From positions 1 to 61,244 of the forward strand of contig WJIO01000421.1 in assembly GCA_014730235.1 (NCBI GenBank): 61,244 nucleotides of DNA, given 5' to 3'. A model generated the notes under the pieces. That model was given only the letters and a program-made list of their open reading frames with translations. It did no database searches and was not told where the DNA came from. The translations under genes and the position numbers were made by a program. This document shows positions 13,916-61,192 of this stretch, in pieces; positions within the stretch are counted from its first letter, which is position 1; the number at the start of each line of letters is the position of its first letter. The DNA comes from Candidatus Poribacteria bacterium. Its GTDB lineage: Bacteria; Poribacteria; DTPJ01; WJIO01.

Positions 13916-13948
13916 TTTTTACCTCCGGAATTAGTGGTTTGTGTATGA

Positions 13949-15244: not shown

Positions 15245-15924
15245 TTCCCATCACCAACTTTAATTTTCTCATTGTTGCTCAGAGATGTAACATAAGTTGT
15301 AAGAGCAACCATCTCTTCGCTGTCCAGCTTTAGGGATTTTCCTTCCATAATCATTGATATACACATGTTATTCATCATGGACAAAGTAATAACGCGTTTT
15401 GCCGATTCTTTGAACTTGGGGAATGTAGCCGCTGCACCTTTTAGGGTGGGTATTTTCATATCCATCATCTGTCCACCGGTGGTTTCACCGTTGGGATGAC
15501 AGCTATTACAGCTTGTTCCAGTTGTTCCCAGTTTGGTATCGTTGAATAGGGCTTTACCTTTTGCAATAACTTCAGCTATGGGATCATTAATACCTTCGGG
15601 TTTGGATTTTGGGTCACCGGGATGAGTGTTAGCAGCAAATTCCTTGTCATTGGTGTACCCGTCTTTATCGGAATCCAGCTTGGCCAGTTCGTCAACGTAC
15701 CTATCCCCGGATTTCATGGCAATATTGCGCCAGTCTTCACCAAAATCATTACGTTTTCCGCCGCCTTTGGGATTTTCATGACATGTGCCGCATCCAAAAC
15801 TTTCACCCTTATCCGGGAGTCTACCCAATCGGAAAGGTCTACCTGAAACAACAGAAATTAAAGTCAGGGTAAAAACAATACACGTAGTGATTGCGATAAT
15901 ATACTTTTTTGATTTACTTTTCAT
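15241..15924 (-). CDS. Periplasmic diheme c-type cytochrome (N-terminal CxxCH plus DxDxDG domain; C-terminal TsdA/SoxA-like domain)
   Basis: Signal peptide, CGTCH and CNSCH, DSDKDG motif, TL..MNN.C...M.G..L..DSEEM.AL..Y segment; ATGA overlap with the next gene. Confidence 0.75.
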   Translation of the reverse strand: MKSKSKKYIIAITTCIVFTLTLISVVSGRPFRLGRLPDKGESFGCGTCHENPKGGGKRNDFGEDWRNIAMKSGDRYVDELAKLDSDKDGYTNDKEFAANTHPGDPKSKPEGINDPIAEVIAKGKALFNDTKLGTTGTSCNSCHPNGETTGGQMMDMKIPTLKGAAATFPKFKESAKRVITLSMMNNMCISMIMEGKSLKLDSEEMVALTTYVTSLSNNEKIKVGDGK

Positions 15925-15938
15925 AAGTTCACTCCTAT

Positions 15939-32763: not shown

Positions 32764-34683
32764 TCAATTCCAACCAGCCCCGGATGAGGGCATGTAAACC
32801 TTAAACACAAGGCTGACTATACTCCATATACTCCTCAATGTAAAATCTCCCAGAACAAGACCCAGGAAGAAGAATGTGGCCTTACGGTGGGTTTTTATGC
32901 CGCCATATTTCAGGATTATGGACTTAATCATCCAGCTTACCATTACCGGAAACCAGAAATACACCATTCCACCCCACGCGCCGCCAGAAAGGACGTAGCC
33001 CGATGGATACAGGGGCCACCACAAAAAGCGTGTGCGCATAATATGCAAAAAGGTCACAAACAAAAATCCCCCGCCCATGAACTGCAAGGCTTTTACATCC
33101 GTTCCCTGGGGATACTGAAGCCAGGCCTGGAGAGGGTTATAGACTTCCCATCCAGCATTACCTATCCAGCCCTGAAGCCTTCCCAGCGTGCCGTAATGAT
33201 ATGTAAAATGAAGGTATGACCAGAAACTTGCTATGGCCCCAAATCCAACGGCCAGAAGTATAGCCTGAACCAGTCTTTTGTTGTTCATTCCTGTTCGTTC
33301 CGCTATCTTAAAGGCTTCTATCTGGCATGGCATAGGATGGGCCCGGTTGCACCTGTTGAAGGGGTAGATGAAAGACATGATAGTAAGATTGTTTCCAAGA
33401 AGTCGCCTTGAACCGAACATCTGAACCATAATACCCCTGGGGTTGATACCAACAACCTCGTGATAAGGAGGACCTAATTCAGCCCTTACCCGGGCTATAG
33501 CTATGGCGAAGAGTATATATATAGCAAAGAAAACTAGTATGGCCCATATAGACATACCAGCGAAACGACAGAACAGCACAAGAACCAGAAGACACACAAC
33601 AAGCATGATTGCGGCTGTCCTGTAACGCATAGGCTCTTTTGAATCGTCCATCTTCTCTAAACCTAACAGGTGCTTGCCAAAGGCCACAAGATGCCGACGG
33701 GCAAGCCATAAGGCAATTAGTGCAACACCTATCCAGGCTCCTGATGCCCTTTCGTTAAGATACAGTTGATTCCATCCTACAGCAGATGCAAACACCCTCT
33801 CAAACCTTGTAAGCCAGAAGAAGAACCAGCACGAAAAGGACAGGTTCAGTGGCATAAAGTACGTAAGCCCCACAATACCAAGATTGAAAAACAGTGTGAC
33901 ATAACCGATGGCGTTCCAGGGTTTTTCGGTGACGAACTGGTCTATCCTGTATGTATAGGGAATAGAAGGCACGGCAGGAACAAGGTCGTGTATGCCATTG
34001 AAAAACCTTATAGATCCAGCCACGGCCAGACCTATCCACATGAGCTTTGTCTTATAAAACTTTCGATCTGCTGCCATAGCCAGGGGAAGCTGGATTATGG
34101 GATAGCTGAGTTTTTCGTTTTCCGTCCATTGTTTCCGCAGGATGGAACTGATGCACAGCAGGGAAAAGTAAAGAAAGAAAATAAAAGCCGACCACACCAT
34201 AACCGGCACAAGCCATGCTTTCATGTTTTCCATTACATGAAAACCCGATTCGCCGGTAAAATAACCTGACAATACATCCATATCCGAAACTGTCATCCAT
34301 GATGGTATATACTGCCAGAATAAGCTCTGCCATTCGTTTTCCGGTGTTGCAAACCAGTAGGGCTGTGTTAATGTTGCCAGCAGCGGCGTCATGGTTGTGT
34401 GGCCCGATATAGTAGATACCATAGTAACCATGACATATATGACCAGAAGTTCAGCCGGCGACAGGGCCAGCTTGCTGGAAATCCTGCGGAGGAAAAATCC
34501 TACCGTGATCAAAAAAGTGAGGGTAAAAATAGCGTTGGAAAAGGGATTTACCAGCGTAAACATGCAGTACCACTGCTCGCTGGATATTCCCACCCAATAT
34601 GCATTTATAGGCACCAGTATAAGACCCAGGATGATGGCCCTTAAAGTTATATCATCCCGACCCGATTTTTCGCTGTAGTTCAT
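32764..34683 (-). CDS. DUF6785/DUF6784-type membrane protein, paralog 2
   Basis: Same motif series (WFATPENEWQ, QWTENEKLSYP, RVRAELG, HPMP.Q.EAFK, FFLGLVLGD). Confidence 0.75.
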   Translation of the reverse strand: MNYSEKSGRDDITLRAIILGLILVPINAYWVGISSEQWYCMFTLVNPFSNAIFTLTFLITVGFFLRRISSKLALSPAELLVIYVMVTMVSTISGHTTMTPLLATLTQPYWFATPENEWQSLFWQYIPSWMTVSDMDVLSGYFTGESGFHVMENMKAWLVPVMVWSAFIFFLYFSLLCISSILRKQWTENEKLSYPIIQLPLAMAADRKFYKTKLMWIGLAVAGSIRFFNGIHDLVPAVPSIPYTYRIDQFVTEKPWNAIGYVTLFFNLGIVGLTYFMPLNLSFSCWFFFWLTRFERVFASAVGWNQLYLNERASGAWIGVALIALWLARRHLVAFGKHLLGLEKMDDSKEPMRYRTAAIMLVVCLLVLVLFCRFAGMSIWAILVFFAIYILFAIAIARVRAELGPPYHEVVGINPRGIMVQMFGSRRLLGNNLTIMSFIYPFNRCNRAHPMPCQIEAFKIAERTGMNNKRLVQAILLAVGFGAIASFWSYLHFTYHYGTLGRLQGWIGNAGWEVYNPLQAWLQYPQGTDVKALQFMGGGFLFVTFLHIMRTRFLWWPLYPSGYVLSGGAWGGMVYFWFPVMVSWMIKSIILKYGGIKTHRKATFFFLGLVLGDFTLRSIWSIVSLVFKVYMPSSGAGWN

Positions 34684-44647: not shown

Positions 44648-46567
44648 ATGGAGCAAAGCAAATTTAATTTAGGTCAGGATAAAAGATCCGTCGGTGTTAC
44701 CTGGAGAGCATTGCTGATAGGGATAATCCTTATTCCCATAAACGTATACTGGATTATGGATTCAGGTGGACAGGGCTATCCCACAACTGTATCCCTCTAT
44801 TTCAACGTTATCTTTTGTGTATTTTTATTAATAATTCTGAACCATATTACTAGTCGTATCTTTCCCAAATTAAGCTTCAGTCAGGGAGAATTACTGGCAG
44901 TTTACGTTATGCTTTCAGTATCCTCATCCATAGCTGGACATGATATGATGAGAGTCTTATCATCAATGCCAGCCCATCCGTTCTGGTATGCAACTCCCGA
45001 AAACGAATGGCAGGAGCTTTTTCATAGATATATACCCACATGGCTTTCTGTTTCAGATAAGAATATGCTGAACGACTACTTTAAGGGTGATTCCAGTTTT
45101 TACAGTATGCAAAACCTTAAATTCTGGCTTAAACCAGTGTTGTGGTGGAGTTCCTTTGTCTTTTGCCTACTTTTCGTTATGCTTTGTGTAAATACTATAG
45201 TCCGTCGTCAATGGACAGAACAGGAAAAGCTCAGTTATCCAATTATACAGTTGCCTTTGGAAATGACAACCAGCGGTGGTATAAAGGGTTTGATGCTGAA
45301 TAAGCTTATGTGGATCGGTTTTGGTTTGGCGGCTGTTGTAGATATAATAAATGGTCTTAATTTTCTGTATCCCTCCGTTCCCAGCATTGGCGGCAAATTA
45401 TACGACCTGCGACCTTTTTTTACTACAAAACCCTGGGATGCTATCGGTTGGACTCCTGTTGCTGTGTTTCCCTTTGCCATTGGCATTGCATTTTTCATAC
45501 CCCTTGATCTTTCCTTTTCATGCTGGTTCTTCTATTTATTCTGGAAGGTTCAGCGTATTCTCGGTTCAATTCTGGGACTCAGAAGTCTGCCGCGCTTTCC
45601 ATATATTGAAGAGCAGGCTTTTGGTGCATATATGGGATTATTTGTCATAGCCATATGGGCTACCAGAAAACATCTGATGGAAGTCATTAAGAAATTCTCC
45701 GGAATAAAATCCAGGGTTGATGATACCAAAGAACCGCTTCCCTACAGGTGGGCAGTTCTTGGTTTAATAGTCGCTTTTGCTTATCTGGTTGGATTTTGCT
45801 ATGTGGCCGGCATGTCCATATGGGTAGCAGTTTTATTTTTTGTAATATATTACGCAATTTCAACGGCAATATGCCGCATGAGGGCGGAATTAGGATCACC
45901 TGTCCACGATCTGCATTTCATTGGCCCTGATCAAACACTTCCCAAAATATTTGGCACTCGCCATCTGGGCGCAGCCAATCTTACCATGTTTGCATATCTT
46001 TATTTCTTCAACAGAGCATACAGAGGACACCCTATGCCGCATCAATTGGAGGGATTCAAGCTGGCCGAAAGGACAGGCATGAATTCCCGGCGGCTTCTTA
46101 TTGCAATGGTTATATCTGTTCCACTGGCGGCTCTGGCTTCGTTCTGGGCGCACCTGGATATATCCTATCGGGTTGGCGCGCCGGCCTGGTTTGCATGGGA
46201 ACCTTTTAACCGTCTCCAGAGCTTTTTATCCGCACCACAACCGCCGGATTATGGGGCAATTGTGGCATCCAACGTAGGATTTATTACCACGATTTTGTTG
46301 ATGTTTATGCGGGTTAAATTTTTCTGGTGGCCCTTTCATCCGGCCGGTTACGCTGTATCTAGTAGCTGGTCAATGAATGTGTTCTGGTTTTCCATAATGT
46401 TAAGCTTCTTTGCTAAGTATATCATAATGAAATCAGGTGGGATCAAGACACATAGAAAAGCTATTCCCTTTTTTCTTGGGCTTATACTGGGTGAATTTAT
46501 TGTGGGAAGCGTTTGGAGCATAATTGGTGTATCCATGCACAGACCCATGTATAGATTTCTATATTAA
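44648..46567 (+). CDS. DUF6785/DUF6784-type membrane protein, paralog 3
   Basis: Same motif series (WYATPENEWQ, QWTEQEKLSYP, RMRAELG, HPMPHQLEGFK, PFHPAGY). Confidence 0.75.
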   Translation: MEQSKFNLGQDKRSVGVTWRALLIGIILIPINVYWIMDSGGQGYPTTVSLYFNVIFCVFLLIILNHITSRIFPKLSFSQGELLAVYVMLSVSSSIAGHDMMRVLSSMPAHPFWYATPENEWQELFHRYIPTWLSVSDKNMLNDYFKGDSSFYSMQNLKFWLKPVLWWSSFVFCLLFVMLCVNTIVRRQWTEQEKLSYPIIQLPLEMTTSGGIKGLMLNKLMWIGFGLAAVVDIINGLNFLYPSVPSIGGKLYDLRPFFTTKPWDAIGWTPVAVFPFAIGIAFFIPLDLSFSCWFFYLFWKVQRILGSILGLRSLPRFPYIEEQAFGAYMGLFVIAIWATRKHLMEVIKKFSGIKSRVDDTKEPLPYRWAVLGLIVAFAYLVGFCYVAGMSIWVAVLFFVIYYAISTAICRMRAELGSPVHDLHFIGPDQTLPKIFGTRHLGAANLTMFAYLYFFNRAYRGHPMPHQLEGFKLAERTGMNSRRLLIAMVISVPLAALASFWAHLDISYRVGAPAWFAWEPFNRLQSFLSAPQPPDYGAIVASNVGFITTILLMFMRVKFFWWPFHPAGYAVSSSWSMNVFWFSIMLSFFAKYIIMKSGGIKTHRKAIPFFLGLILGEFIVGSVWSIIGVSMHRPMYRFLY

Positions 46568-46660
46568 TCATGCCTGAAAATATGTAAACCCTTTTTTTCA
46601 TTATGCGTTTTAAGAAGTCGTAAGCAAAGATAATTCCCTAACTTGATCAGGAGTTGTATA

Positions 46661-49600
46661 TTGCATAGCATATCCAAAATCCGGTGCGACAAGAAATTAA
46701 AATTATTTACCCCACCGTTATTTTTGTTGTATATAATCATTTATGGATTAACGGTTTTTTGTCCATCCTTTGCCAAAGAAGCTAAAACCGAATTATCAGC
46801 AAAAAAACATGATAAATTTAATATACATCTTTTGCAAAAAGACGAAACTCTATCCCATGTAGCTCTAAGATATTACAAGGATATTTCAATGGTAGGATTG
46901 CTGGCAAGGTATAATGATATAAACGATGTGCGGCGTATACCCGAAGGCAAAGAAATTAAAGTTCCCTATGAAATTTCATATACAATCAAACCCAATGATT
47001 CATTATCGGAGATAGCCCAGAAACTTCTGGGAAGCTGGCAGAAATACAGCATAATTGCTGAATATAATAAGCTGGAAGATCCCGGATTTGTGATCGCTGG
47101 TAGAGTTTTGAGGATACCGCTGCTTAAGCCTGATACTGAACCCCCAGAACCAGAAGCACCCCCTGCTGAAGTTGTGGAAGAAGACAAGCCAGAAGAACCT
47201 GAAAGAAAGAAAGTAGAAAAAGAATATCCAGTCGTTACCGAATCAGAAAAAGAAGAGAAAACCAAAGAGATAATAGAACCTACAAAAGAAACAGAAGAAG
47301 ATGTTTCCACAGAACCGGATGTAGATATAGAAAAAGAAACTAAACCGGAAACGGTGGTTGAGCCGCAGGAACCGGTTGAGGTAGAAACTGAAACCAAAGT
47401 TATTCCGGAAATATCCGAAGAACCCCCATCCCCTGCCTCAACGGAAGAATTAAAACAGGAAAAACCCAAAGACCATACCGCACCTATAGGCCCTATGCCT
47501 CAATCCAAATTCAGACTCGTCAGGGTAAAGCCAGATGATAAGGAAGAAGAAATCATACAGGAAGAATTTGGTGTGGAGCAGGAATGGCCCCTGGCCTCCC
47601 CCTGGGCCAGAAAAAAACTACAACCATCAGAAGAGGAAATAACCGAACCGGACAGGCTGTCGGCTGTATTGGATGCACTGAAAACCTGGGATCGTCCTAT
47701 TGAGGAATTAGAGGATAGCAAAAAAGCCCGATTTGACGAAAAGGGCATAAACCTGCCTATGGATTCACTGCTTCAGGTAACAGGATATAAATCCATCACA
47801 ATCCAGTATAATAAAACCCACTATTTTGGAAAATCCGATATAAACCGATACAGCGGATATTATTCCGGTGGCTATGGTTCAGGCTTTTATGATTATGATT
47901 ACGGTTATGATTCCTATGGTTACGGTAGTAGCTACAATAGCTACAGCAGTGGTTACAGCAGTTATGGAAGCGGCTACAGTTCCTCCAGGTATGGTTATGG
48001 CTATGGTCAACGAGAAGGCCCAAATATTGAACAGGAATTTGACATTCATATTCATGGACGAGTTGGTAAGCATACTCATGTGGATGTTGATTACAATGAT
48101 ACCGGCAGATCTCAATATGGCGGAATGGGTCAGAAGGAGCAGAAAATTTCTGTGTGGTATGAGGGCGATCCGGAGGATATAATCCAAAGAGCTGCATTCG
48201 GTGACATTCGCCTTGAATTACCCAACAGTCGCTTTCTTAATATGGGCAGAACCCTCTTTGGCGCACAAATGGTGGCAAAATTGGGTGATCTTAAATTAAC
48301 TGCCTTTGGAACCAGAACCAAAGGTATCAAAGGAACCTGGACATCCAAAGGTCAGTCCAGAAGGGCCGGAGGTGGAACCGGTACCAGGATCATGGATATT
48401 AATTATATTAAAGAAAGATATTATGCCATAAATGTGGATGAAGACGGTTTTATTAATGATTCGTATTTACCAATAGAAACAGGCAGCGAGCAGATTTATA
48501 TAGACGATGGTATCGGTACAAATAACGATTCAGGTATATCAACAGCCCAGGGATATTTCGACTATCAATACCCCGGTGATGATTACAGCATTGATTACTC
48601 TACCGGACAGATAGAATTTTTAAAGAATATATCCACAGGTTTTAAAATTGTGGTAGCTTACAGATATCGGGGTGGTGATGGTGGTTCTGTGGGTAATCCG
48701 GATTCTGTATTTGTGGATGATGATGATGATGGTATAACGGATGGATTAGACGATCCTGATGATCCTGTGGGTTATGTAGTTATAAAAGATTCAGCGGCTC
48801 ATGGTTCGGAACTGCGGAATGTATACAGTCTTGGAAACAGGAATATCGGCAGACGCAACTTTGAATTAAGCATCTGGCGTGAGGGTGCAACGGATTCTTT
48901 TGAAACAGGTGATGGTAAGGTAGCATATATACGTATATTCGGCTTGGATTCGGACAACGACGGTCTGGTTGATCCTGAACTTATAGACTTTGAAAGGGGA
49001 ATACTTACTTTCCCAAATCCCAAACCCTTTATCATTGATGATCCTGCAAGTCCTTATTATCAATACAGGGATGAATTAAATAACGAGGCAATATACTCAG
49101 AAAACCCCAACTATTCCGATCAGAAATACATTATCCAGGCGGATTATTCATACCAGACACCGAGTTTTTATCTTGGAAGATTAAATATAATACCTGAAAG
49201 TGAAGAAGTAAGGGTAAACGGTCAAAGATTGAATAGAAATACAGATTATATGATGATCTATGAGGTGGGCTCAGTAGAGATATTCAGGGAACTGGATGAA
49301 TATGACGAAATTACAATTGATTATGAATATATGCCTTTTGGCGGTCAATACCAGCAGACAATAGCAGGTATATGGGCTGAATATTCGTGGAAACCGGGCA
49401 AGAAAAAGGAAGAAAAGAAAAAAACTCACACAGATATGTATAGGGAAGACGGGGCCAGTCCCTTCTCCCAGGATACAGACAGCAGTGATTCCGACTACAG
49501 TCGTTATGGAAGCTCAAGCTCAAGTTTCGGTAACTATGGGTCTTTTGGCGGCAGCTATAATAGCTATGGAAGCAGTTATGGAAGTAATTACGGTAGTTAT

Positions 49601-52600
49601 GGTGGTTATGATAGCTTTAGTTCATATAGAGGCAGAAGAGGAAGTTTTGGATCAAGCCGGAGTTATGGTTCATCCCGCAGCAGTTTTTATACACCCCGAA
49701 CTGGTGAAGGCTTGAACCTCTCTATGGGATATGTATATAATACAGGAGAAAGAACTTCCGCAATTCCCGACGTTAATTCCGCTCCAAGTCGTCTCCAGGC
49801 TTTGGTATTTGGTGGAAACTGGGGTGATAAATTCAATATGGCCAGGGTTTTTGGACTTCTTCCCTTTGTATCAATAAAAGGCGAAGTGCCTTTTACGGTT
49901 TACCTGGATGGTGAAGCTGCCTATAGCCGTAATAATCCCAACAGCGTTGGCTATGCCATGATTGACAGTATGGAAGGTGCAAAAGAGAGCGCAAAAATGC
50001 CCACCTATAAGTTCTCCTGGAAAACTGCAAGCGTGCCAATGGATACGGAATCGGATAACGATATTTCAATTGATAACAGGGCGATTTTTCATATAGAAGA
50101 ATATGACGAAGATGCCAGCTACGGCAACTATATGAAAAACCGGGAAACCTCCGCTATTGAAATTAATCCCTTATCCAGAGCAACCCAGCAGCATCTTGTT
50201 ATGGAGATCGGGTATGATTTAAACGATGCTGCATCATGGGGAGCTTTAGCCTATCCTGTTTCTAACACCGGTGCAGATTTTAGCGAATATGAATTCCTTG
50301 AAATATGGATGAAGGTTGACGGTGATGAAAATGTAAATCTGCATCTGGATTTTGGTGTTATAAGTGAAGATACGGATGATGATTTTCGTTTGGATAGCGA
50401 AGACCTGCCCAGGGATATGCTCGACAGCAACGGTGATCATAAAATAGATATACTCGATCTGGATAAAGAAGACCTGCCGGAAGAGCATAAATATAAAGGG
50501 AACGGAAGCCTTGACCTGCGTGAAGATAACGGATGGGTCTACAACGATTTTAGTGGAAATGTAATTGACACTATTGGCAGGGAAAACTCGGTTCTGGATT
50601 CTGAAGACCTGGATGGAGACGTGGTATTGGATACAAACAATTCATATTTCGGTTTTACCATACCATTAAATAATATACCCAATGACTGGATCCGCAAAAA
50701 AACCAGCAAGACAGGATGGATATTCCTGAGTATACCTCTGGAAGAGGCTCTTCCAAAAGGACGTTCACCAAGCTGGGCAGTTATTAAGCATATGCGATTA
50801 TGGTTAGAGAAAAATATTCCCGGTTCTATAAATGGTAAATTCCAATGGTATTCAATAACTGTCGCTGGTAACAGATGGGAGAAAGGCCTTGTTGTTGAAA
50901 ATGAAACAGGCAAGCTTTCAGAAGATCTCACAAATGAAATTCTGGTTGGTACAAAAAACAACCACGAATTTGAAGATTACCTGGAAGAATACAGAAAGAT
51001 AGAGGATAACGAAGATTTTGATGTCCTGCATCCATATGTGGAAAGCGCATTTGGTCTGGAAAGCGACCAGAAAGAGCAATCATTAACTCTGAATTATGAT
51101 TTACAACCGGACACAACTGGTTACACCATGCGGGAATTATCCGGGGTTCGTCGTGGCGAAGGTCAGGATTTTTCAAAACATAGAGAGATGCGTATATGGT
51201 TGCATGGTGATGGTAGCGGTTTACCTTTCTTGATCAGGATGGGAAGCAATACCGATGATTTCGGAGCAGGAAGTCCTATAACAACAAAAGATGATGACAA
51301 TAACGATCCATATAACAATTATAACTATACTTATTCGTCATATTCATCAAGGTATGGAGCAAAAGGTTATTATGAGTATATCCTTCCCCTTGATTTTAAA
51401 GGATGGAAACTAATAAAAATATCATTTGCGGATAAAGATGATGATGGACATCCGGATGAATTAACGCCTATAAACGATCCTGCCATTAACAATATCCACG
51501 AAATACTTGTGGGTATTAAAAACGAATATCAGTATCCTGTAACAGGTGAAATATGGGTTAATGAAATACATTTAACAGATCCATTTGTCAAATCCGGCTG
51601 GGCAAGACGTTTTAATTTATCCGCAGATTTAGCCAATATTTTTGATATCAGAGCTGGTTATGCAAAGCAAGACAAGAATTTTGAAAATTCCGCAGGTCAA
51701 ACAGGCAGATCAAGCATGCGTTCTTATGGCTACAGCACCAGTAGTTATGATTATAATGTTGACACCCAATTTAAACTAATCTCATGGCTGCCTATGAGTT
51801 TTGGTATAAGTCACCGGGAATCGGAAAGCAGCAGTCTTTACGGAATAATCAGTTCCTATCAAAGCGGTCTAACAAAAACCGATAACAAGACTTTCAGCAT
51901 TAGCCTTGATAAAAGCCCTATCCCTCGGTTGTCTTTTTCATACGACAAGCAGAGACAGTGGAATGAAGTCAGAGGGGTGGAATTGAGTGACCTTTATTCA
52001 TCGGATGTGGGATATTCTCTTGGCAGTGTTTTGACAATTAACCTTGATTATTCCCATGAAGTATTGACAACGGAACAGGATTCATCGGAAGATGACACCA
52101 CTCCAACAAGTTCTTATTACTATTACGGCAGAGATACCGATACAATAGTTGACCGAGGCGGCATATCCCTTAGAATATCCCCTATAAAAAGCTTTAGCCT
52201 TGATCCATCTTATGAAGTCAGAAGGGAAATGGAGCGGGAGAAAGACGAAGATGACATAGAAGGTGGATTTCTTATTTCATCCAGAGACCAAAGAATATCC
52301 CTTAGACCGACCCTGAGAAAATTCTGGGGGGTTAAACCATCAATAAACGGCAGATATGGTTTCAGTGAAGACTGGTTTGGCGGCGAAAAGGACGTATCCC
52401 TCAACACAGATCTCGGTTTTGGGTTAAACTTTACCTTTAAGGACTGGTTTAAACCCAAGAAAGGGAAAGATGAACGAGGACGGGATAGGTTAACGGAATT
52501 GGGTAAAGATATTGACCTGTTGACTGAAGAAGACCTTCGCTCCCTGAGTGAGGAAGATATACAGGAACTCCTGGATGAAAAAACTCAGCAGGAACGGGGT

Positions 52601-53536
52601 AACTGGATCGAAAAGGAAAAGGATGAAATAAAGGAAAAGCTGCGTCAGCGAAAACTCGAGGAAGAAATGGATATAGAGCCTGATGCTGAAGGTGGTAATT
52701 TTGCCTTCCGGGCCTTAAAAAGAAGTGTATCAACTTTTTCCATTAATACTGATTTAAGATACAGTATCAATGACTACCTTCGCCGTTTAGATCCCACAAT
52801 GGGATTTTCGGATATAATGAAGCTGGAAGATGAATCCGAATTCCGAACAAGGTCTACCAAAACCAGAAGGTTTACCATCAGAGCAAATATGGATCCCATG
52901 ACGTGGGCTTCTCTGGGAACCAATATGTCACTAACCAACAGGTTTACTAAATCATCAGGAACAGCATCCGATTCTGATTCATCAACCGTTGGCGGCGATA
53001 TTAAAATATTTAGCTCTCAGACATCCTTTATGCTTAAATACAATATGACCACTCAGGATTCCAGCAACCAGAGCGGTAAAATATCCGACAGCATATCCCA
53101 TAATCCATCAGTTACTGTGCGAAAAAGCTGGTCTTCAGGAATCGGCTCATCTCTGGGATTTAGAATTACCTTCCGAGATTATGAACGTGGTGGAATAGAG
53201 ACAAGGTCAAGAATTTATGCACCAAACTTTAATATAGATTACGATCTGCATGTAAAGGGTGATGTTGATCTACCATTTGTACGCAAAATAAGCCTCGATC
53301 ATAATCTGGATATGAGCAATACAGTTTCAGTAATGGTACGTCGGGAAAAGCTGGGAATAAACCGGGATGAGAAATCAGAGCAGTATGGAACTTCTCTTGA
53401 TGTTAGTTATAATCTACGACAAACACTCAGAGCAAGTATGAGATTCTCTTTGGACTATAACCATGATAGGGTGGAAAAAGATGCAGATTATATATCTGTT
53501 TCAGGGTCCCTCATGCTAAGGGGTGAGTTTAGATAA
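46661..53536 (+). CDS. Giant SprA-like outer-membrane protein (T9SS translocon-like) with two N-terminal LysM domains
   Basis: AGGAG then TTG start at 46661; signal-like N-terminus; two LysM repeats; SprA-like segments (R.LFGAQ, NIIPESEEV.VNG..L.RN.DY, DFSEYEFLEIWM, ISEDTDDD..LDSED, EIWVNEIHL..P..GWA); amphipathic beta-strand C-terminus. Confidence 0.75.
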   Translation: MHSISKIRCDKKLKLFTPPLFLLYIIIYGLTVFCPSFAKEAKTELSAKKHDKFNIHLLQKDETLSHVALRYYKDISMVGLLARYNDINDVRRIPEGKEIKVPYEISYTIKPNDSLSEIAQKLLGSWQKYSIIAEYNKLEDPGFVIAGRVLRIPLLKPDTEPPEPEAPPAEVVEEDKPEEPERKKVEKEYPVVTESEKEEKTKEIIEPTKETEEDVSTEPDVDIEKETKPETVVEPQEPVEVETETKVIPEISEEPPSPASTEELKQEKPKDHTAPIGPMPQSKFRLVRVKPDDKEEEIIQEEFGVEQEWPLASPWARKKLQPSEEEITEPDRLSAVLDALKTWDRPIEELEDSKKARFDEKGINLPMDSLLQVTGYKSITIQYNKTHYFGKSDINRYSGYYSGGYGSGFYDYDYGYDSYGYGSSYNSYSSGYSSYGSGYSSSRYGYGYGQREGPNIEQEFDIHIHGRVGKHTHVDVDYNDTGRSQYGGMGQKEQKISVWYEGDPEDIIQRAAFGDIRLELPNSRFLNMGRTLFGAQMVAKLGDLKLTAFGTRTKGIKGTWTSKGQSRRAGGGTGTRIMDINYIKERYYAINVDEDGFINDSYLPIETGSEQIYIDDGIGTNNDSGISTAQGYFDYQYPGDDYSIDYSTGQIEFLKNISTGFKIVVAYRYRGGDGGSVGNPDSVFVDDDDDGITDGLDDPDDPVGYVVIKDSAAHGSELRNVYSLGNRNIGRRNFELSIWREGATDSFETGDGKVAYIRIFGLDSDNDGLVDPELIDFERGILTFPNPKPFIIDDPASPYYQYRDELNNEAIYSENPNYSDQKYIIQADYSYQTPSFYLGRLNIIPESEEVRVNGQRLNRNTDYMMIYEVGSVEIFRELDEYDEITIDYEYMPFGGQYQQTIAGIWAEYSWKPGKKKEEKKKTHTDMYREDGASPFSQDTDSSDSDYSRYGSSSSSFGNYGSFGGSYNSYGSSYGSNYGSYGGYDSFSSYRGRRGSFGSSRSYGSSRSSFYTPRTGEGLNLSMGYVYNTGERTSAIPDVNSAPSRLQALVFGGNWGDKFNMARVFGLLPFVSIKGEVPFTVYLDGEAAYSRNNPNSVGYAMIDSMEGAKESAKMPTYKFSWKTASVPMDTESDNDISIDNRAIFHIEEYDEDASYGNYMKNRETSAIEINPLSRATQQHLVMEIGYDLNDAASWGALAYPVSNTGADFSEYEFLEIWMKVDGDENVNLHLDFGVISEDTDDDFRLDSEDLPRDMLDSNGDHKIDILDLDKEDLPEEHKYKGNGSLDLREDNGWVYNDFSGNVIDTIGRENSVLDSEDLDGDVVLDTNNSYFGFTIPLNNIPNDWIRKKTSKTGWIFLSIPLEEALPKGRSPSWAVIKHMRLWLEKNIPGSINGKFQWYSITVAGNRWEKGLVVENETGKLSEDLTNEILVGTKNNHEFEDYLEEYRKIEDNEDFDVLHPYVESAFGLESDQKEQSLTLNYDLQPDTTGYTMRELSGVRRGEGQDFSKHREMRIWLHGDGSGLPFLIRMGSNTDDFGAGSPITTKDDDNNDPYNNYNYTYSSYSSRYGAKGYYEYILPLDFKGWKLIKISFADKDDDGHPDELTPINDPAINNIHEILVGIKNEYQYPVTGEIWVNEIHLTDPFVKSGWARRFNLSADLANIFDIRAGYAKQDKNFENSAGQTGRSSMRSYGYSTSSYDYNVDTQFKLISWLPMSFGISHRESESSSLYGIISSYQSGLTKTDNKTFSISLDKSPIPRLSFSYDKQRQWNEVRGVELSDLYSSDVGYSLGSVLTINLDYSHEVLTTEQDSSEDDTTPTSSYYYYGRDTDTIVDRGGISLRISPIKSFSLDPSYEVRREMEREKDEDDIEGGFLISSRDQRISLRPTLRKFWGVKPSINGRYGFSEDWFGGEKDVSLNTDLGFGLNFTFKDWFKPKKGKDERGRDRLTELGKDIDLLTEEDLRSLSEEDIQELLDEKTQQERGNWIEKEKDEIKEKLRQRKLEEEMDIEPDAEGGNFAFRALKRSVSTFSINTDLRYSINDYLRRLDPTMGFSDIMKLEDESEFRTRSTKTRRFTIRANMDPMTWASLGTNMSLTNRFTKSSGTASDSDSSTVGGDIKIFSSQTSFMLKYNMTTQDSSNQSGKISDSISHNPSVTVRKSWSSGIGSSLGFRITFRDYERGGIETRSRIYAPNFNIDYDLHVKGDVDLPFVRKISLDHNLDMSNTVSVMVRREKLGINRDEKSEQYGTSLDVSYNLRQTLRASMRFSLDYNHDRVEKDADYISVSGSLMLRGEFR

Positions 53537-55822: not shown

Positions 55823-56749
55823 TTAAATTTTTCCAATAAGGTTTAATTGATCAATAAATTTCTGGGGTATCAAACCTGATATATCTATAGGAACATCCCA
55901 GGTGACAACGCCGCCTTTAGAATTTACATCCTTAGTATAACCAACTACGAATTCATCCACAAACCGGGGTTCACCGTGTCCCCAACGTTCCCCAAGATAG
56001 CTGAGTATGTGATACTGCGTTCCGTTCAGCCACCGGTTTGGGCAGATAGGAAATATTGTCGATATTTCCCCGGCTGTATAATCTTCATATTCCGTCAGGG
56101 TTATTACAGGGGTTTTAACTCCCGGATTAAAAGCTATTATGCTTTCGGGATTTCCGACTTTCAGGGCATAGGCAAAGCTCTTAAAGTTTGGCGGATCATC
56201 ATGTCTATACATTTCATCGGAGAAATAGCACCCGTCAATCCACCATCCATGAACCTTATTTCCCCATCTTAAAGACCATTCCCTTATTATCTTTTCCCAT
56301 TTTAACTGGAACTCGGCCAGTCGTTTGCCTGTTCTCTTTGGCCCACCTGAAGGCCATTGCCCTTCATAACCCCATTCCCATCCCAGACGTTCCATAGCTA
56401 CAGGATCAGCCGCCGGTGCACCGCTGGGTAGATAGACCATAAGCCTGATACCCTCTTTGGTCAAAGCATCTGCCAGTTCCATGATGAGATCGCGCTTTGA
56501 GCATTTGCTGGGTTTTATGCCCACAAAGGAATCATAGGTATCGTTAGGGGAACAATAATGACCGGAGTTTTGCCCTATGGTTATGAAATAATATGGAGTT
56601 CCTGTTGCTTTTAGCTGTTCTACCAGTCCATCTACGTTGAAATTATCAATCTGTGAATTCCAAACTTCTGCTGTGGTTTCTTTTCCTGTCAAATAGTGAG
56701 TAAAAACACCCCATTTAGCATCTTTGAACCAGTCTGTATTTGATTTCAT
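55823..56749 (-). CDS. Alpha-L-fucosidase-like glycoside hydrolase (GH29-like)
   Basis: WFKDAKWGVFTHY, RDL..ELADAL...G.R...Y, GWWIDG; start taken at ATG 56749 downstream of the hairpin; no signal peptide. Confidence 0.7.
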   Translation of the reverse strand: MKSNTDWFKDAKWGVFTHYLTGKETTAEVWNSQIDNFNVDGLVEQLKATGTPYYFITIGQNSGHYCSPNDTYDSFVGIKPSKCSKRDLIMELADALTKEGIRLMVYLPSGAPAADPVAMERLGWEWGYEGQWPSGGPKRTGKRLAEFQLKWEKIIREWSLRWGNKVHGWWIDGCYFSDEMYRHDDPPNFKSFAYALKVGNPESIIAFNPGVKTPVITLTEYEDYTAGEISTIFPICPNRWLNGTQYHILSYLGERWGHGEPRFVDEFVVGYTKDVNSKGGVVTWDVPIDISGLIPQKFIDQLNLIGKI

Positions 56750-56789
56750 GGTTTCTTTTCTTAATTTATGGTATTTGGTGAAAAGCACA

Positions 56790-56826
56790 CAATGACCGCC
56801 CCGATTGAAAATCGGGGCGGTCATTG
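56790..56826. terminator. Perfect 17-bp palindrome with CAATGAC...GTCATTG ends after queD
   Basis: CAATGACCGCCCCGATT-GAA-AATCGGGGCGGTCATTG. Confidence 0.65.
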
Positions 56827-57223: not shown

Positions 57224-58114
57224 CTACATACCGGCAGCTTCCAGAATATCAGGAACTTTGTCCTCTTTGCCTATGGCCATGATATGCACACCGTCACAGA
57301 TTTTTTCGTCTTTAATCTCCTTTATCATGCGACCGGCGATCTCAATACCCTTTCTAAGGGCATTACCTTTGCCCTTAGGCACATTTGCCATTTCGTCTAT
57401 AAGTTCGTCAGGAACGAATATGCCCGGTACGTTGGCGTTCATAAATTTGGCCATCCTTGACGACACCAGAAGAACCAGTCCGGCCAGTATTTTAACATCA
57501 AACTGTCGTGCATATTTCATGAAATCTTTGAATCTTTCCAGATCATATATGGCCTGGGTCTGGAAAAACTCAGCACCGGCTTCAACTTTCTTCTCAAACT
57601 TCATCAACTGGGGTTCGATAGGGTTAGCCTCTGGTGTGACGATAGCACCAACGCAAAATTCCACAGCACCCTCTAATTCATTGCCGCCCAGATCAAATCC
57701 GGATTCCATGGTTCGCACCATCTTTACAAGCTGGACAGAATCCAGATCAAACACGCTTTTGGCTTCCTTGTGATCACCAACTTTAATGGAGTCACCTGTG
57801 AGGCACAGGACATTCCTAACTCCGCCGTAATAGGCAGCCAGAAGGTCTGACTGAAGGGCCAAACGATTTCTATCCCGACCCGTCATCTGAAGCACTGGTT
57901 CGCCGCCCCGGCCTTTTATCATTATTGATGTGGAAACAGACGGAAAGCGCATGACCGAACTCTGGTTATCGGTTACATTGAGGGCGTGTATCCTGTCTTT
58001 TAAGAGGTCGATGTGATGCAGCATGCTTTCCAGGTTAGTTCCCTTTGGAGGCCCGATCTCTGCTGTTACAACAAATTCACCGGAATTGAGTACTTCCCTG
58101 AAGGGTTTAGGCAT
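57224..58114 (-). CDS. metF: Methylenetetrahydrofolate reductase, catalytic subunit
   Basis: TAEIGPPKG, NVTDN, Q.T.RDRNR.ALQSDLL, N.LCLTGD, KK.EAGAEFFQTQ, DGVHIM. Confidence 0.92.
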   Translation of the reverse strand: MPKPFREVLNSGEFVVTAEIGPPKGTNLESMLHHIDLLKDRIHALNVTDNQSSVMRFPSVSTSIMIKGRGGEPVLQMTGRDRNRLALQSDLLAAYYGGVRNVLCLTGDSIKVGDHKEAKSVFDLDSVQLVKMVRTMESGFDLGGNELEGAVEFCVGAIVTPEANPIEPQLMKFEKKVEAGAEFFQTQAIYDLERFKDFMKYARQFDVKILAGLVLLVSSRMAKFMNANVPGIFVPDELIDEMANVPKGKGNALRKGIEIAGRMIKEIKDEKICDGVHIMAIGKEDKVPDILEAAGM

Positions 58115-58779
58115 TATTCTGACTCCTCTCTGCTTCCAATCAAAACTTTACCTGGTTTATCAACTTTTTGATGGTTACGGGGTGGATAGTATTTTTTCAT
58201 GGAATCCAATTTCCCCAGTTCCTCAAGACGTTTATAGATAAGAGTCCACGCACAGTCTTTTTCTGGATCTTCCTCACATTTACCATCGTTTGTTCCACCA
58301 CACGGCCCGTTAAGCAATCCTTTGGCACATTTGGTAACAGGACAAATTCCGCCTGTATATGCGATTACACAGTCACCACACTGCTGGCACACTTCGGCAA
58401 ATAGACCGAATTCTCCGCCCTCTTTGCCAATAAACAGGGTATCCAGGGCCGGATATGTGGGTTTATCCGAAAAAGAAGCCACAGTCTGAGTACCAAAAGC
58501 GCAGGCCATAACCAGAATGGAATCGGCTTTTTCAATTTTATCGGCCTGATCCTTCAGGGCATCATTAGTTAAATCGTCGCATGTAGTGGGTATAACCATC
58601 CAACCTACAACTTCTTTTCCTGCTTCCTGGAGCTTTTCCTTCATCTCCAGGACTTCATACTTGCCGCCGGTATGGCACATAGTGGCACATGTCCCGCAGC
58701 CTATAATATATACTTTTTCGTCTTTTTCAAGACATTCCTGAATTTGATCAAAGCTTTTCTGCTCTGTAATAGTCTTCAT
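58114..58779 (-). CDS. metV: Methylenetetrahydrofolate reductase small Fe-S/Zn subunit (MetV)
   Basis: GC.TCA..C..GG...V, CA.G.Q, CQQCGDC......GGICPV..CAKGLLNGPCGG..DGKCE......CAW; overlaps the metF start. Confidence 0.88.
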   Translation of the reverse strand: MKTITEQKSFDQIQECLEKDEKVYIIGCGTCATMCHTGGKYEVLEMKEKLQEAGKEVVGWMVIPTTCDDLTNDALKDQADKIEKADSILVMACAFGTQTVASFSDKPTYPALDTLFIGKEGGEFGLFAEVCQQCGDCVIAYTGGICPVTKCAKGLLNGPCGGTNDGKCEEDPEKDCAWTLIYKRLEELGKLDSMKKYYPPRNHQKVDKPGKVLIGSREESE

Positions 58780-58804
58780 TAAACCACCTCATGATTAAGA
58801 GGAT

Positions 58805-60010
58805 TTAAACTTTCACTTTATCGTTTACTCGTGATTCATATTCTTCTCTGTAAAATTCCATTGTATCAACAACAGAATTTGGCGCAGCCTGTCCTAATCC
58901 ACACAGGGAAGTAAGGGCCATGGTTTCCGAAAGGTCTTCCAGGAATTCCAAATCGATTCTGGATGCTGTACCTTCGGTAAGACGTTCCAGTATTTCCAGC
59001 ATGCGCTTTGTTCCTTCGCGACATGGAAAGCACTTTCCACAGGATTCCTCTTCAAAGAATTCCGCGTTCTTTTTCACCATCTCTATGACATCCCTGGTGT
59101 TATTAAAGACCAGCACACCACCTGCGCCTAATACTGTCTCAAATGTAAGCGGTGTATCAATATTTTCAAAAGGCACGATCCTGCCGGATGCGCCGCCTAC
59201 CTGCACCATTTTCACGTTTTCAGCGCCGGCTAAATCTTCCACTAGCTCTTTCAGGGAGCTACCCATGACCATCTCATATACACCGGGTTTGTTTACATCA
59301 CCGGAGACTGAAAGAACCTTTGTACCTTTACTGCTTTCGGTTCCTATGCTGTTGAACCATTCTTTGCCTTCAGCCATTATACGGGGGATGTTCATCAAAG
59401 TTTCCACGTTGTTGACGATAGTAGGCTTTCCCCACAGGCCTTCTGATGGCGGAAAAGGTGGTCGGGGACGGGAGTCACCCCGTTTTCCTTCTATGGATTC
59501 GATCAAAGCCGTTTCTTCACCGCAGACATAAGCACCTGCACCCTCGTATATTATAATATTAACATGGTCAAGGAATCCTTTGTCCTTAGTCTGATCTATG
59601 GCGTTTTGCAGGTTTTCCAGCAGGTAATGATATTCGGCTCTCAGGTATATGAAGGCTTCTTTCGCACCAATGGCATAACTGGCAATTGCAACAGCCTCAA
59701 TCAGACTAAATGGGTCTTCTTCCAGGATCACCCGATCCTTGAAAGTGCCTACCTCGCCTTCATCTGCATTGCAGATTACATATTTTTCATCACCTTTAGC
59801 TTTGCTGGCAAAATCCCATTTTAAACCTGTGGGAAAACCAGCACCGCCGCGACCTCTCAGGTTTGAGTCTTTGATTTCCTGTATGACTTCCGACGGCGTC
59901 ATATCCATTGCCTTTTTCAATCCGGCAAAGCCACCGTTGGAAATAAAGCTTTCTATATCTTTTGGGTCAATAACCCCGCAGTTTTTTAAAACAACTCGCT
60001 TCTCTGGCAT
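58805..60010 (-). CDS. NuoF/HoxF-like NADH-binding flavoprotein subunit, short form
   Basis: LRGRGGAGFPTG.KW, CNADEGE.GTFKDR, GAGAYVCGEET.L.ES.EG, PT..NNVET, ESCGKC.PCREG, CGLG; no C-terminal ferredoxin domain. Confidence 0.9.
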   Translation of the reverse strand: MPEKRVVLKNCGVIDPKDIESFISNGGFAGLKKAMDMTPSEVIQEIKDSNLRGRGGAGFPTGLKWDFASKAKGDEKYVICNADEGEVGTFKDRVILEEDPFSLIEAVAIASYAIGAKEAFIYLRAEYHYLLENLQNAIDQTKDKGFLDHVNIIIYEGAGAYVCGEETALIESIEGKRGDSRPRPPFPPSEGLWGKPTIVNNVETLMNIPRIMAEGKEWFNSIGTESSKGTKVLSVSGDVNKPGVYEMVMGSSLKELVEDLAGAENVKMVQVGGASGRIVPFENIDTPLTFETVLGAGGVLVFNNTRDVIEMVKKNAEFFEEESCGKCFPCREGTKRMLEILERLTEGTASRIDLEFLEDLSETMALTSLCGLGQAAPNSVVDTMEFYREEYESRVNDKVKV

Positions 60011-60040
60011 TAAGATCCTCCTGATGAGCGGAGTTGAGAG

Positions 60041-60487
60041 CTACTTATATTCTTTAAGAATCTCGATAACTTTTTCTGAAGTCAGATTACCGTATATTTT
60101 ATCATTTATCATCATTGCAGGGGCTTTGTCACAAGCTCCAATACAGTTAGTCAACTGTAGAGAGAATTTATTATCTTCGGTAGTCTGACCTATACCAATA
60201 CCCAGTTCTTTCTCCACCGTTTCTACTATTACATCACAGCTTTTGAGAAAGCATGGGGTGCTTTTACATATTCTTATAACATTTTCGCCAAGAAGCCCTG
60301 TGGAAAGGAAGGAATAAAAAGTCGCTACCTCGTATACTTCATTTATGGAAACTCCTAATCCCTCTGCCACTTGAGATATGGCTTCTTCCGGGAGATACCT
60401 GCATTTTTCCTGCACGTCTTTTAATACCGACAATATGCTGGTATTGTTATTGTGCCGGTTCAGCACCTCCTCAACGACCTTTTCCAT
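60041..60487 (-). CDS. NuoE/HoxE-like [2Fe-2S] subunit
   Basis: EVATFYS, CKSTPC and C.GACD.AP.M.IND thioredoxin-like [2Fe-2S] motifs. Confidence 0.9.
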   Translation of the reverse strand: MEKVVEEVLNRHNNNTSILSVLKDVQEKCRYLPEEAISQVAEGLGVSINEVYEVATFYSFLSTGLLGENVIRICKSTPCFLKSCDVIVETVEKELGIGIGQTTEDNKFSLQLTNCIGACDKAPAMMINDKIYGNLTSEKVIEILKEYK

Positions 60488-60514
60488 TACATACCTCCTG
60501 ATGGAATATCGGGT

Positions 60515-61192
60515 TTAACCAGTTATTAAAAGGGGTTTTCCCTTCTTTTTCCCGGCGAATTGTTCTTCCTTCTTTGTAAGAGCGCCAACCGGACATACTT
60601 CCACGCAAACGTCACAGGATTTACATACATCTTCCAGCGCTTGGTCTGTATCAACGGTCACATTGGAATCAAAACCTCTTCCTACTATCCCCAGAACACC
60701 CTCTTCTTTCAACTCCCGACAAGCCCTTACACATCTACGGCACATTATGCACTTGGTCATATCCCGGACAATATATGGATTAATTTCATCAGGAACATAG
60801 TAATGCTTTTTACCTTTAGCGCGGGTCAACGTCATACCCAGATCCGCTGCGATTTTACGAAGGTCGCAAATATTGGCTTTATCACACATCAGGCAGTCAC
60901 CGGAATGATCCGCAAATACTAATTCCAGTATTGCTTTTCGGGCTTTTATTACCTTGGGGGAGTGAGTTTGAACATCCATTCCCCGGCTTATTGGAGTATG
61001 GCAAGAAGCGACCAGGGTTCTGGAACCTTTTACTTCTACTACACATATACGACATGAACCTGTTGGAGTTAAGTCTGAAAGATAACATAAGGTGGGAATT
61101 TCTATGCCGTTTTCCTCGGCCAGTTCTAATATAGTCATTCCCTCTGAACCTTTTACATAAACTCCATTCAGAGTTAGTTCTACTTCACCCAT
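60515..61192 (-). CDS. HoxU / NuoG-N-terminal-like Fe-S subunit without a catalytic domain
   Basis: IPTLC...GSCRIC.VE...LVASC ([2Fe-2S]), HSGDCLMC...NIC (His-ligated cluster), CIMCRRCVRAC and CKSCDVCVEVCP (two [4Fe-4S]). Confidence 0.88.
   Translation of the reverse strand: MGEVELTLNGVYVKGSEGMTILELAEENGIEIPTLCYLSDLTPTGSCRICVVEVKGSRTLVASCHTPISRGMDVQTHSPKVIKARKAILELVFADHSGDCLMCDKANICDLRKIAADLGMTLTRAKGKKHYYVPDEINPYIVRDMTKCIMCRRCVRACRELKEEGVLGIVGRGFDSNVTVDTDQALEDVCKSCDVCVEVCPVGALTKKEEQFAGKKKGKPLLITG

Follow-up and report, generated by a model that had tools for sequence, protein, structure and literature searches.

A NuoE/NuoF-linked MetV-MetF gene block in Candidatus Poribacteria that probably encodes an NADH-fed methylenetetrahydrofolate reductase

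Introduction

From which donor does the MetVF-type methylenetetrahydrofolate reductase (MTHFR) receive its electrons, and does the step that it catalyses conserve energy? Both are long-standing loose ends in the energetics of the Wood-Ljungdahl pathway, and both are raised by five contiguous genes at one end of contig WJIO01000421.1 of a Candidatus Poribacteria bacterium (assembly GCA_014730235.1). The entire contig, 61,244 bp in length and numbered C368 in the source genome G000 (a 5.53-Mb bin of 451 contigs, 91.6% complete), is the stretch of DNA analysed here and is called the window. The genes encode a HoxU-like Fe-S protein, a NuoE-like protein, a short NuoF-like flavoprotein, MetV and MetF, and it is considered probable that their products form one soluble complex, a five-subunit NADH:methylene-tetrahydrofolate (THF) oxidoreductase, which would depend on NADH and would probably not bifurcate electrons. 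A multi-subunit, NADH-fed MTHFR is the best reading of the block because the synteny is tight and crosses phyla, the short NuoF proteins linked to MetV form a single clade, and in one genome the block stands inside an operon for acetyl-CoA synthase (acs).

Passages of Yi et al. (2021; Microbiol Spectr, PMC8515935) describe how in Dethiosulfatarculus sandiegensis, the type example, metFV has genes for a 'NuoEFG homolog' on its upstream side, and name NuoEFG-MetFV the 'X type' (phylogenetic group III), which was predicted from genomes, is said to be widespread in Chloroflexi, is termed unstudied and was speculated to be bifurcating. A literature search on NuoEF-linked MTHFR, limited to one paper library, returned no characterisation of such an enzyme, and its only mention was that of Yi et al. 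(2021). As far as the type is set out in those passages, the window block resembles it in having genes for NuoE, NuoF and NuoG homologues directly upstream of metV-metF on one strand. It differs in that the NuoG homologue is only an Fe-S head of 225 amino acids (aa), the NuoF homologue has neither a GltD fusion nor accessory Fe-S domains and falls in its own clade, the domain content argues against bifurcation, and the host probably has no acetyl-CoA synthase. The reduced form, the separate clade and the presence in such a genome are what is new here.

Gene content and cofactor motifs

The five genes lie side by side on the minus strand (Table 1), as the initial annotation, made from the DNA letters, had proposed; positions and Pfam and NCBIfam domains bear this out. 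Gaps of 27, 30 and 25 nucleotides (nt) separate the HoxU-like gene, nuoE, nuoF and metV, while metV and metF share one base (TAATG), and the GC content of the block (0.44) is ordinary for the contig.

Table 1. Features of the MetV-linked block and of the DNA that follows it in the window.
Feature	Length	Position	Strand	Family or structural evidence
HoxU-like Fe-S subunit	225 aa	60515..61192	-	Pfam Fer2_4 + NADH-G_4Fe-4S_3 + Fer4_Nqo3
NuoE-like [2Fe-2S] subunit	148 aa	60041..60487	-	2Fe-2S_thioredx PF01257 at 1.7e-48
Short NuoF-like NADH/FMN subunit	401 aa	58805..60010	-	Complex1_51K + SLBB + NADH_4Fe-4S
MetV, Fe-S/zinc connector of MetVF-type MTHFR	221 aa	58114..58779	-	DUF5981/PF12225 at 2.3e-34
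MetF, catalytic flavoprotein of MTHFR	296 aa	57224..58114	-	PF02219 at 4.8e-40
QueD/PTPS-family gene	123 aa	56834..57205	-	PF01242 at 8.9e-45; TIGR03367 115 bits vs cut-off 89
Terminator-like hairpin		56790..56826	-	17-bp stem, 10 G-C pairs, T-rich tail

In the HoxU-like protein the Pfam scan found the three domains of Table 1 and no H-cluster, molybdopterin or other catalytic domain, in agreement with what had first been noted for this subunit. It scores below every NCBIfam cut-off (HoxU model 179.9 vs 333, NuoG 170 vs 470), and among solved structures the N-terminal stretch of HydA1 (210 residues; 7q4v_A, 185 bits) matches it best. The ligands of four clusters can be assigned: C36, C47, C50 and C64 for a [2Fe-2S] cluster, H96, C100, C103 and C109 for a His-ligated [4Fe-4S] cluster, and C148/C151/C154/C158 together with C190/C193/C196/C200 for two ferredoxin-type [4Fe-4S] clusters, the same four as have been described in HoxU and in the N-terminal portion of HydA. 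The HoxU-like proteins of two genomes of the same order, G002 (L016:3181-3852) and G001 (L017:6246-6911), have no Cys equivalents of C158 and C190; judging by these residues they are probably down one ferredoxin-type [4Fe-4S] cluster, and the window copy retains all four motifs.

The NuoE-like protein, with the Cys pattern C74-x4-C79-x35-C115-x3-C119, passes the NuoE model NF005722 (149.6 bits vs a cut-off of 141) and stays under the HoxE model (112.9 vs 224). The NuoF-like protein remains under the NuoF equivalog cut-offs (447 vs 558 bits) and its alignment with chain 7t2r_B (597 aa) covers residues 115-529 of the latter, with the glycine-rich loops for flavin mononucleotide (FMN) and NADH conserved; its [4Fe-4S] ligands C324/C327/C330/C370 are present in 15 of 15 sequences. 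Its best solved matches are 7t2r_B (445 bits) and HydB (7q4v_B, 428), followed by Aquifex NuoF (357) and Thermus Nqo1 (332). The statement of the initial annotation that the 401-aa subunit has neither the N-terminal [2Fe-2S] nor the C-terminal 2x[4Fe-4S] domain of HydB-type bifurcating subunits is upheld by the alignment with 7t2r_B and by the extents of the NuoF cores. Since the nuoE stop lies 30 nt before the nuoF start and metV begins 25 nt after the nuoF stop, there is no room in nuoF for accessory domains.

MetV scores 117.4 bits against PF12225, contains the NGPCGG motif and has 12 Cys residues that are invariant in 17 of 17 sequences. MetF scores 138.1 bits against PF02219 (cut-off 24) and is the sole MTHFR-family match in the source genome. 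By the features taken from passages of Yi et al. (2021; PMC8515935), among them Cys residues for two [4Fe-4S] clusters in a MetV whose gene directly precedes metF, both proteins can be assigned to the MetVF-type MTHFR. The AlphaFold2 model of MetV has a mean predicted local distance difference test score (pLDDT) of 62.6, falling below 50 in the Cys-rich C-terminal half, Foldseek against the PDB gave nothing at E <= 0.001 and generic alpha/beta folds only, and a profile search of PDB sequences returned a spurious match to a designed repeat protein and no MetV-containing structure.

Conservation of the block in other genomes

Is this arrangement peculiar to one contig? One genome for each of 185,579 species was scanned with MetV N-terminal patterns, a procedure that finds only MetVs sharing those patterns, and 24 loci were obtained, by record title 20 from Chloroflexota (mostly Dehalococcoidia), one from Calditrichales, one from Candidatus Poribacteria (G002) and two labelled 'uncultured bacterium', one of them G001. 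A NuoF homologue stands directly upstream of metV, on the same strand, in 22 of the 24, an arrangement far beyond chance; the synteny survey, which had been named as a check, thus speaks for the linkage. The short form is complete in 14 of the 24 loci (Fe-S protein of 221-231 aa, NuoE, NuoF of 396-404 aa), three are cut by a contig end and keep a NuoF fragment, 52-63% identical, that abuts metV, five have long NuoF forms, and in two an FdhA-like gene overlaps metV without NuoE or NuoF.

Counting the window there are 15 short-form loci, and in 13 of them the interval from nuoF to metV is -4 to 25 nt. The exceptions are insertions between nuoF and metV in the two relatives, where the block is otherwise intact: a 394-aa YhgA-like transposase gene in G002 (L015:1737-2921) and a 93-aa open reading frame (ORF) of no known family in G001 (L014:13188-13469). 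Across the short-form loci the pairwise distances of four of the proteins correlate (r = 0.82-0.90), which fits joint inheritance; kinship of the genomes alone would yield such values. At the Dehalococcoidia locus L018 the block follows cooS-acsB-acsC-acsE by 24 nt and so lies inside a Wood-Ljungdahl (acs) operon.

The same MetV subfamily is also found behind larger partners. The long-form modules comprise a HoxU-like protein, NuoE and a 653-aa Bfu-type NuoF (L023), a HoxU-like protein, NuoE and a NuoF::GltD fusion of ~1,040 aa (L020 and L022), and a 925-aa FdhA-like protein with NuoE and a 639-aa NuoF (L019), whereas in L025 and L030 NuoE/F are absent and the gene for an FdhA-like protein of 885-891 aa overlaps the metV start with its stop. 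This gives MetV the appearance of a general connector to Fe-S heads of the NuoG type. The five-protein, all-soluble short form and the long Bfu-type forms would make a good pair for testing which features confer bifurcation. Among 17 longer MetV homologues, nine are MetV::MetF fusions, four are fused to an RnfC-type Complex1_51K flavoprotein, three to a histidine kinase and one to a GltD-like protein; the RnfC-type fusions are distant homologues of the window MetV (32-38% identity).

How far does the module reach beyond these loci? A survey of the phylum (41 genomes) found NuoF proteins at least 70% identical to that of the window only in three genomes of this order, all others being at most 52% identical. 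In a sample of 151 genomes, full-length MetV occurred in eight, of which three belong to this order (71-100% identity) and five do not (39-47%), and a further 33 matched MetV residues ~113-195 only, inside frames of 511-610 aa; at three of the distant metV loci no NuoF was present within the 1.5-kb flanks.

Two recurrent neighbours of metV were also seen. A histidine kinase gene follows metV in several Dehalococcoidia/Calditrichales loci (L021, L023, L025, L026), three of them with two response-regulator genes nearby, and together with the MetV::histidine kinase fusions mentioned above (P0152-P0154, 523-527 aa) this hints at a MetV domain in redox or folate sensing. In Dehalococcoidia a DUF3786 gene recurs after metF (L018:10512-11258) or after metV (L025:9652-10302).

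Phylogeny of the short NuoF

A tree was built on 35 NuoF cores. The short forms fall into one clade (15 rows, support 100/99), as do the long Bfu-type forms (7 rows, 100/99), the HoxF-like proteins of the same phylum (9 rows, 100/100) and the ordinary NuoFs (2 rows, 100/100). Inside the short clade the window, G001 and G002 (99/98) stand beside 12 Chloroflexota/Calditrichales rows (98/92). Descent of the short form from the long form is not claimed, because the tree leaves the order of the short, long and NuoF-containing clades unresolved. The difference in domain content is uniform: past the NuoF core all 15 short-clade members have an N-terminal extension of 0 aa and a C-terminal one of 0-9 aa, in contrast to 132-321 aa and 65-509 aa in the seven long forms.

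In the loci examined the short NuoF clade was met only beside MetV. When its alignment was used as a profile against 1.84 billion representative sequences, for which genomic context is not given, one short family-level match was found (P0003, 398 aa, 519.6 bits); 25 of the best 150 matches are of 445 aa or less, one of them a 242-aa fragment.

The source genome holds two other NuoF paralogues, both with extra domains and partners of their own. The first belongs to a Bfu-type [NiFe] hydrogenase cluster (G000:C322, L040 1074-8697) made up of NuoE, a 1,057-aa NuoF::GltD fusion, a NuoG-like molybdopterin protein and the small and large subunits. The second is part of a Stn-like pair (G000:C246, L041 6150-10369), an 802-aa NuoE::NuoF fusion with C-terminal Fer4 and a 545-aa HoxU::GltD-like protein.

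Proposed electron path

If the five proteins act together, NADH would be oxidised at the FMN of the short NuoF-like subunit and the electrons would pass to its single [4Fe-4S] cluster, then along the one [2Fe-2S] and up to three [4Fe-4S] clusters of the HoxU-like subunit, and through the Fe-S clusters of MetV to the flavin of MetF, which would reduce methylene-THF to methyl-THF. The NuoE-like [2Fe-2S] cluster is placed beside the flavin of the NuoF-like subunit, as in complex I and Hox. Since this flavoprotein has neither accessory Fe-S domain, the reaction would most likely be simple, reversible and NADH-linked. The E°' of the NAD+/NADH couple is -320 mV. A passage of PMC9586279 places the methylene-/methyl-THF couple at about -200 mV, and the step from NADH to methylene-THF is downhill. 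G001 and G002 each encode a second, higher-scoring single-subunit MetF (314-320 bits), so that the MetVF complex would not merely be the housekeeping enzyme there.

The joint between the NADH-oxidising part and the reductase would be the contact of the HoxU-like protein with MetV. Complex prediction for this pair gave a median score of 0.39 (runs 0.02, 0.43 and 0.39), the best of three controls being 0.00. In the benchmark, 116 of 157 solved complexes attained the mark, as did 2 of 215 mismatched pairs, and scores of 0.60 or less hold 18 of the 157 solved complexes together with both passing mismatches. Between runs at least 0% of the contacts agree, the partner has a pLDDT of 82 or more, and an interface was not returned; the prediction lends weak support to the contact.

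Could the HoxU/NuoE/NuoF trio instead work on its own as a diaphorase (an NAD(P)H:ferredoxin or flavodoxin oxidoreductase, say) that shares no more than its regulation with MetVF, the latter being a ferredoxin-dependent enzyme of two subunits like that of Clostridium ljungdahlii, with no stable five-subunit complex being formed? Two-subunit MetFV enzymes that work on reduced ferredoxin are described in passages of PMC8515935, the predicted contact with MetV is a weak pass, and in G002 the block is kept despite the transposase gene between nuoF and metV. Yet electron transfer from NADH to ferredoxin is uphill unless coupled to an exergonic step, and the module has no bifurcation domains; besides, in 13 of 15 loci, spread over three phylum labels, nuoF overlaps metV or is translationally near it, the short NuoF clade accompanies MetV exclusively in the loci examined, and MetV::51K-flavoprotein fusions exist. 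An independent diaphorase is for these reasons judged very unlikely, and the five-subunit, NADH-fed MTHFR is retained.

Genes upstream of the block

The HoxU-like gene, the first of the block, has only 52 nt upstream of it on the contig, closed in all three frames, and two same-order genomes, G001 and G002, which hold the block at 60-78% identity, show what precedes it. The series in G001 runs fhs, fchA, a beta-lactamase-family gene, folD, nifU, ~1.1 kb of gap, the Fe-S gene, nuoE, nuoF, the 93-aa ORF, metV and metF; that in G002 runs fchA, folD, an unnamed gene, nifU, a gap of 350 nt and the block. The initial annotation had supposed that the operon continues beyond the window edge and may hold further subunits; this is not borne out, since the window is the whole contig and the Fe-S gene heads the block in both relatives. 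The source genome itself has a 2,961-bp contig, C289, with fchA-folD-nifU and a gene for a double zinc ribbon; it breaks off at the point where the block would be expected. Because C289 and the window end share no overlapping bases, their join is drawn from the relatives only. The formate-THF ligase gene (fhs) of the source genome is apparently split over contig ends, G000:C10:1471-2862 and G000:C289:9-239.

These neighbourhoods bear on another possibility, namely that the trio is the N module of complex I, with the membrane genes elsewhere, or the diaphorase of a hydrogenase or formate dehydrogenase (FDH) encoded beyond the contig end. The latter case, with a catalytic subunit upstream that accounts for the diaphorase and an independent metVF, had been named at the outset as the one that would overturn the assignment; fhs-fchA-folD-nifU stands upstream in G001 and fchA-folD-nifU in G002, and neither has a hydrogenase or FDH gene there. 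Such origins would agree with the NuoE-like protein passing the NCBIfam NuoE cut-off and with the FdhA-like genes that precede NuoE-NuoF-MetV or MetV in other Dehalococcoidia loci. However, a search for NuoH (PF00146) drew a blank in the three genomes of the order, the control search having detected it in 11 of 14 known genomes, and the NiFe hydrogenase of the source genome has a NuoE and a NuoF of its own. We regard both origins as scarcely credible. The complex I N module was rejected on the absence of NuoH together with the NuoF and NuoG model scores given above (447 vs 558 and 170 vs 470), and the hydrogenase or FDH diaphorase was rejected for this lineage on the upstream genes of the relatives and the hydrogenase's own subunits. 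An NAD-linked FDH is not evident in the source genome, whose otherwise sole molybdopterin enzyme is a 714-aa protein with a Fer4_11 subunit beside a rhamnosidase gene and without a NuoG-like head.

Physiological setting of the host

Which pathway would such an enzyme serve? Three genomes of the order (91.6, 97 and 88% complete) were searched for the acetyl-CoA synthase family (AcsB, PF03598) and none of them gave a match. The same search found a frame of AcsB size (736-753 aa) in all five Chloroflexota/Calditrichales genomes with the short form that were searched (L018, L028, L026, L035, L039), which means that it does find bacterial AcsB, and the absence of acetyl-CoA synthase from the source genome is probable. 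The enzyme would therefore serve the methyl branch only. The initial annotation had offered a Wood-Ljungdahl or a methyl-oxidation route; a complete Wood-Ljungdahl pathway is unlikely in the source genome, and a role in the methyl branch remains.

Together with fhs-fchA-folD the complex possibly constitutes a stand-alone methyl branch that runs toward the oxidation of methyl groups delivered by corrinoid methyltransferases. Methyl-group oxidation or one-carbon redox balancing is thereby favoured over acetogenesis, which is the weakest link of the account. The three genomes have 1, 4 and 3 methyltransferases of the MttB family, and on contig C94 of G001 one such gene lies ~0.9 kb from a B12-binding gene. 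No full-length MetH was found in the three genomes; they hold separate homocysteine S-methyltransferase, pterin-binding and several B12-binding modules (4-5 of the last in G000). A B12-binding and an S-methyltransferase gene are adjacent on G000:C346:2504-4155 (L055). The rest of the window contig encodes sulfatases, lectin-like proteins, multihaem cytochromes, rubrerythrin and peroxiredoxin, and the host has the look of a polysaccharide degrader, anaerobic or microaerobic, whose methyl branch stands alone. The module is thus found outside acetogen-like genomes, in a polysaccharide-degrading, hydrogenase-bearing heterotroph that probably lacks acetyl-CoA synthase.

Bifurcation and the weight of the evidence

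Several points weigh against the reading proposed here. The five-subunit complex and its activity are deduced from sequence and predicted structure, and in the prediction for the HoxU-like protein and MetV, a weak pass, one of the three runs scored 0.02 and no interface was obtained. The MetF adjacent to metV varies, being 41-78% identical to the window MetF and encoded on the opposite strand in several loci, and the occurrence of the same MetV subfamily behind Bfu-type NuoF, NuoF::GltD or FdhA-like proteins would make MetV a promiscuous connector. As the source genome is a 91.6% complete bin in 451 contigs, absences from it are probable, not proven. Its sole MttB-family gene has no corrinoid gene beside it, and its fhs reaches only 261 bits (positions 1-443) and contains one in-frame TAA, as against about 842 bits in G001 and G002; this gene may be degenerating, divergent or mis-assembled. 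The physiological direction of the enzyme is a guess. Moreover, the NuoF-like and HoxU-like proteins resemble, by sequence, subunits of bifurcating enzymes (7t2r_B 445 bits, HydA1 185) more than they do complex I (Aquifex NuoF 357), and parts of a 2026 preprint report that HoxEFUYH bifurcates although its HoxF is without the C-terminal domain, so that missing domains are no proof of a simple reaction.

The last two points lead to the question of whether the enzyme could be a flavin-based bifurcating MTHFR, in which NADH oxidation would drive methylene-THF reduction together with endergonic ferredoxin reduction and the NuoE-like [2Fe-2S] cluster would be the low-potential exit. Besides the scores and the Hox precedent, the sister loci that join the same MetV subfamily to full Bfu-type NuoFs and NuoF::GltD fusions would suit it, as would the proposal made for the NuoEFG-MetFV type in passages of Yi et al. 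(2021; PMC8515935). In Hox, however, the N-terminal [2Fe-2S] cluster is retained and is assigned to the low-potential branch in the same parts of the 2026 preprint, and the 401-aa subunit has neither this cluster nor the C-terminal 2x[4Fe-4S] domain. The accessory domains are missing in all 15 clade members, whereas the paralogues in the source genome keep extra domains, and the analogous enzyme of Acetobacterium woodii is described in passages of PMC8515935 as NADH-dependent with very low ferredoxin-dependent activity. Bifurcation is consequently considered unlikely. That the HoxU/NuoE/NuoF trio by itself constitutes a minimal flavin-based bifurcating core, handing the electrons of NADH on to methylene-THF and ferredoxin without the hallmark HydB-type accessory Fe-S domains, seems more doubtful still; were it true, reduced ferredoxin would in the reverse direction help to push methyl-THF oxidation to NAD+. 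Of the NADH-dependent, non-bifurcating multi-subunit MTHFR first proposed for these genes, the NADH-fed multi-subunit enzyme stands as the best reading on synteny, clade and the acs operon of L018, and its non-bifurcating nature is probable to the extent that missing domains can tell.

Comparison with characterised enzymes

The nearest functional parallel would be the RnfC2-MetV-MetF enzyme of A. woodii, in which RnfC2 is a MetV-like/RnfC-like fusion and the enzyme is NADH-dependent, as passages of Yi et al. (2021; PMC8515935) state. In both cases MetVF would be fed with NADH electrons by a Complex1_51K-type FMN/Fe-S flavoprotein with no second acceptor established in those passages. Unlike the one fused input protein of A. 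woodii, the window has three separate proteins of the NuoE, NuoF and HoxU kinds and would have a longer Fe-S wire; the window complex would be a functional analogue.

The HoxEFU part of HoxEFUYH is similar in its cofactors, with a [2Fe-2S] cluster in E, FMN and [4Fe-4S] in F, and in U a [2Fe-2S] cluster plus three [4Fe-4S] clusters, of which one has a His ligand. It differs in that the N-terminal [2Fe-2S] domain of HoxF is absent from the NuoF-like protein, the partner in the window is MetVF and not HoxYH, and the HoxU and HoxE models stay below cut-off (179.9 vs 333 and 112.9 vs 224). With no hydrogenase genes in the block, or upstream of it in the relatives, assignment as a HoxEFU diaphorase was rejected.

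The HydABC/Bfu enzymes (7t2r, NiFe-HydABCSL, and 7q4v, HydABC) provide the best solved matches for the NuoF-like and HoxU-like proteins. Of the B subunit (597 aa) the matches span residues 115-529, and of the A subunit (583 aa) residues 2-210, and the window proteins, unlike these, have no N-terminal [2Fe-2S], C-terminal ferredoxin or catalytic domains. A Bfu/HydABC-type module was likewise set aside, as the NuoF-like protein begins at the equivalent of 7t2r_B residue 115 and ends at 529 of 597.

Neighbouring genes and other features of the window

The queD gene starts 18 nt downstream of metF and is probably on the same transcript, which does not imply a role in the complex; in the relative G001 a PTPS gene is also found, 3.3 kb downstream of metF. 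The hairpin that follows (Table 1) probably ends the transcription unit. It comes from a consensus scan that gave 7 such sites in the region vs 6.9 expected from shuffles, and was chosen for its stem length and position. The promoter scan of the region gave 21 sites vs 19.6 expected. The listed ATG of the next ORF (55823-56824, 333 aa, weak alpha-L-fucosidase match) lies inside the 5' arm of the hairpin, and the true start of this ORF is probably further downstream.

Elsewhere in the window, positions 11471-18500 hold a redox and oxidative-stress cluster that encodes an 853-aa multihaem cytochrome, a SoxA/TsdA-type cytochrome c, a ferric-reductase-like flavocytochrome, an FMN reductase, ferritin and rubrerythrin. 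Three paralogous proteins of ~640 aa with DUF6785 and DUF6784 are encoded at 30733-32655, 32764-34683 and 44648-46567; two of the genes are adjacent, and one paralogue adjoins a 2,297-aa LysM-containing protein (46643-53536).

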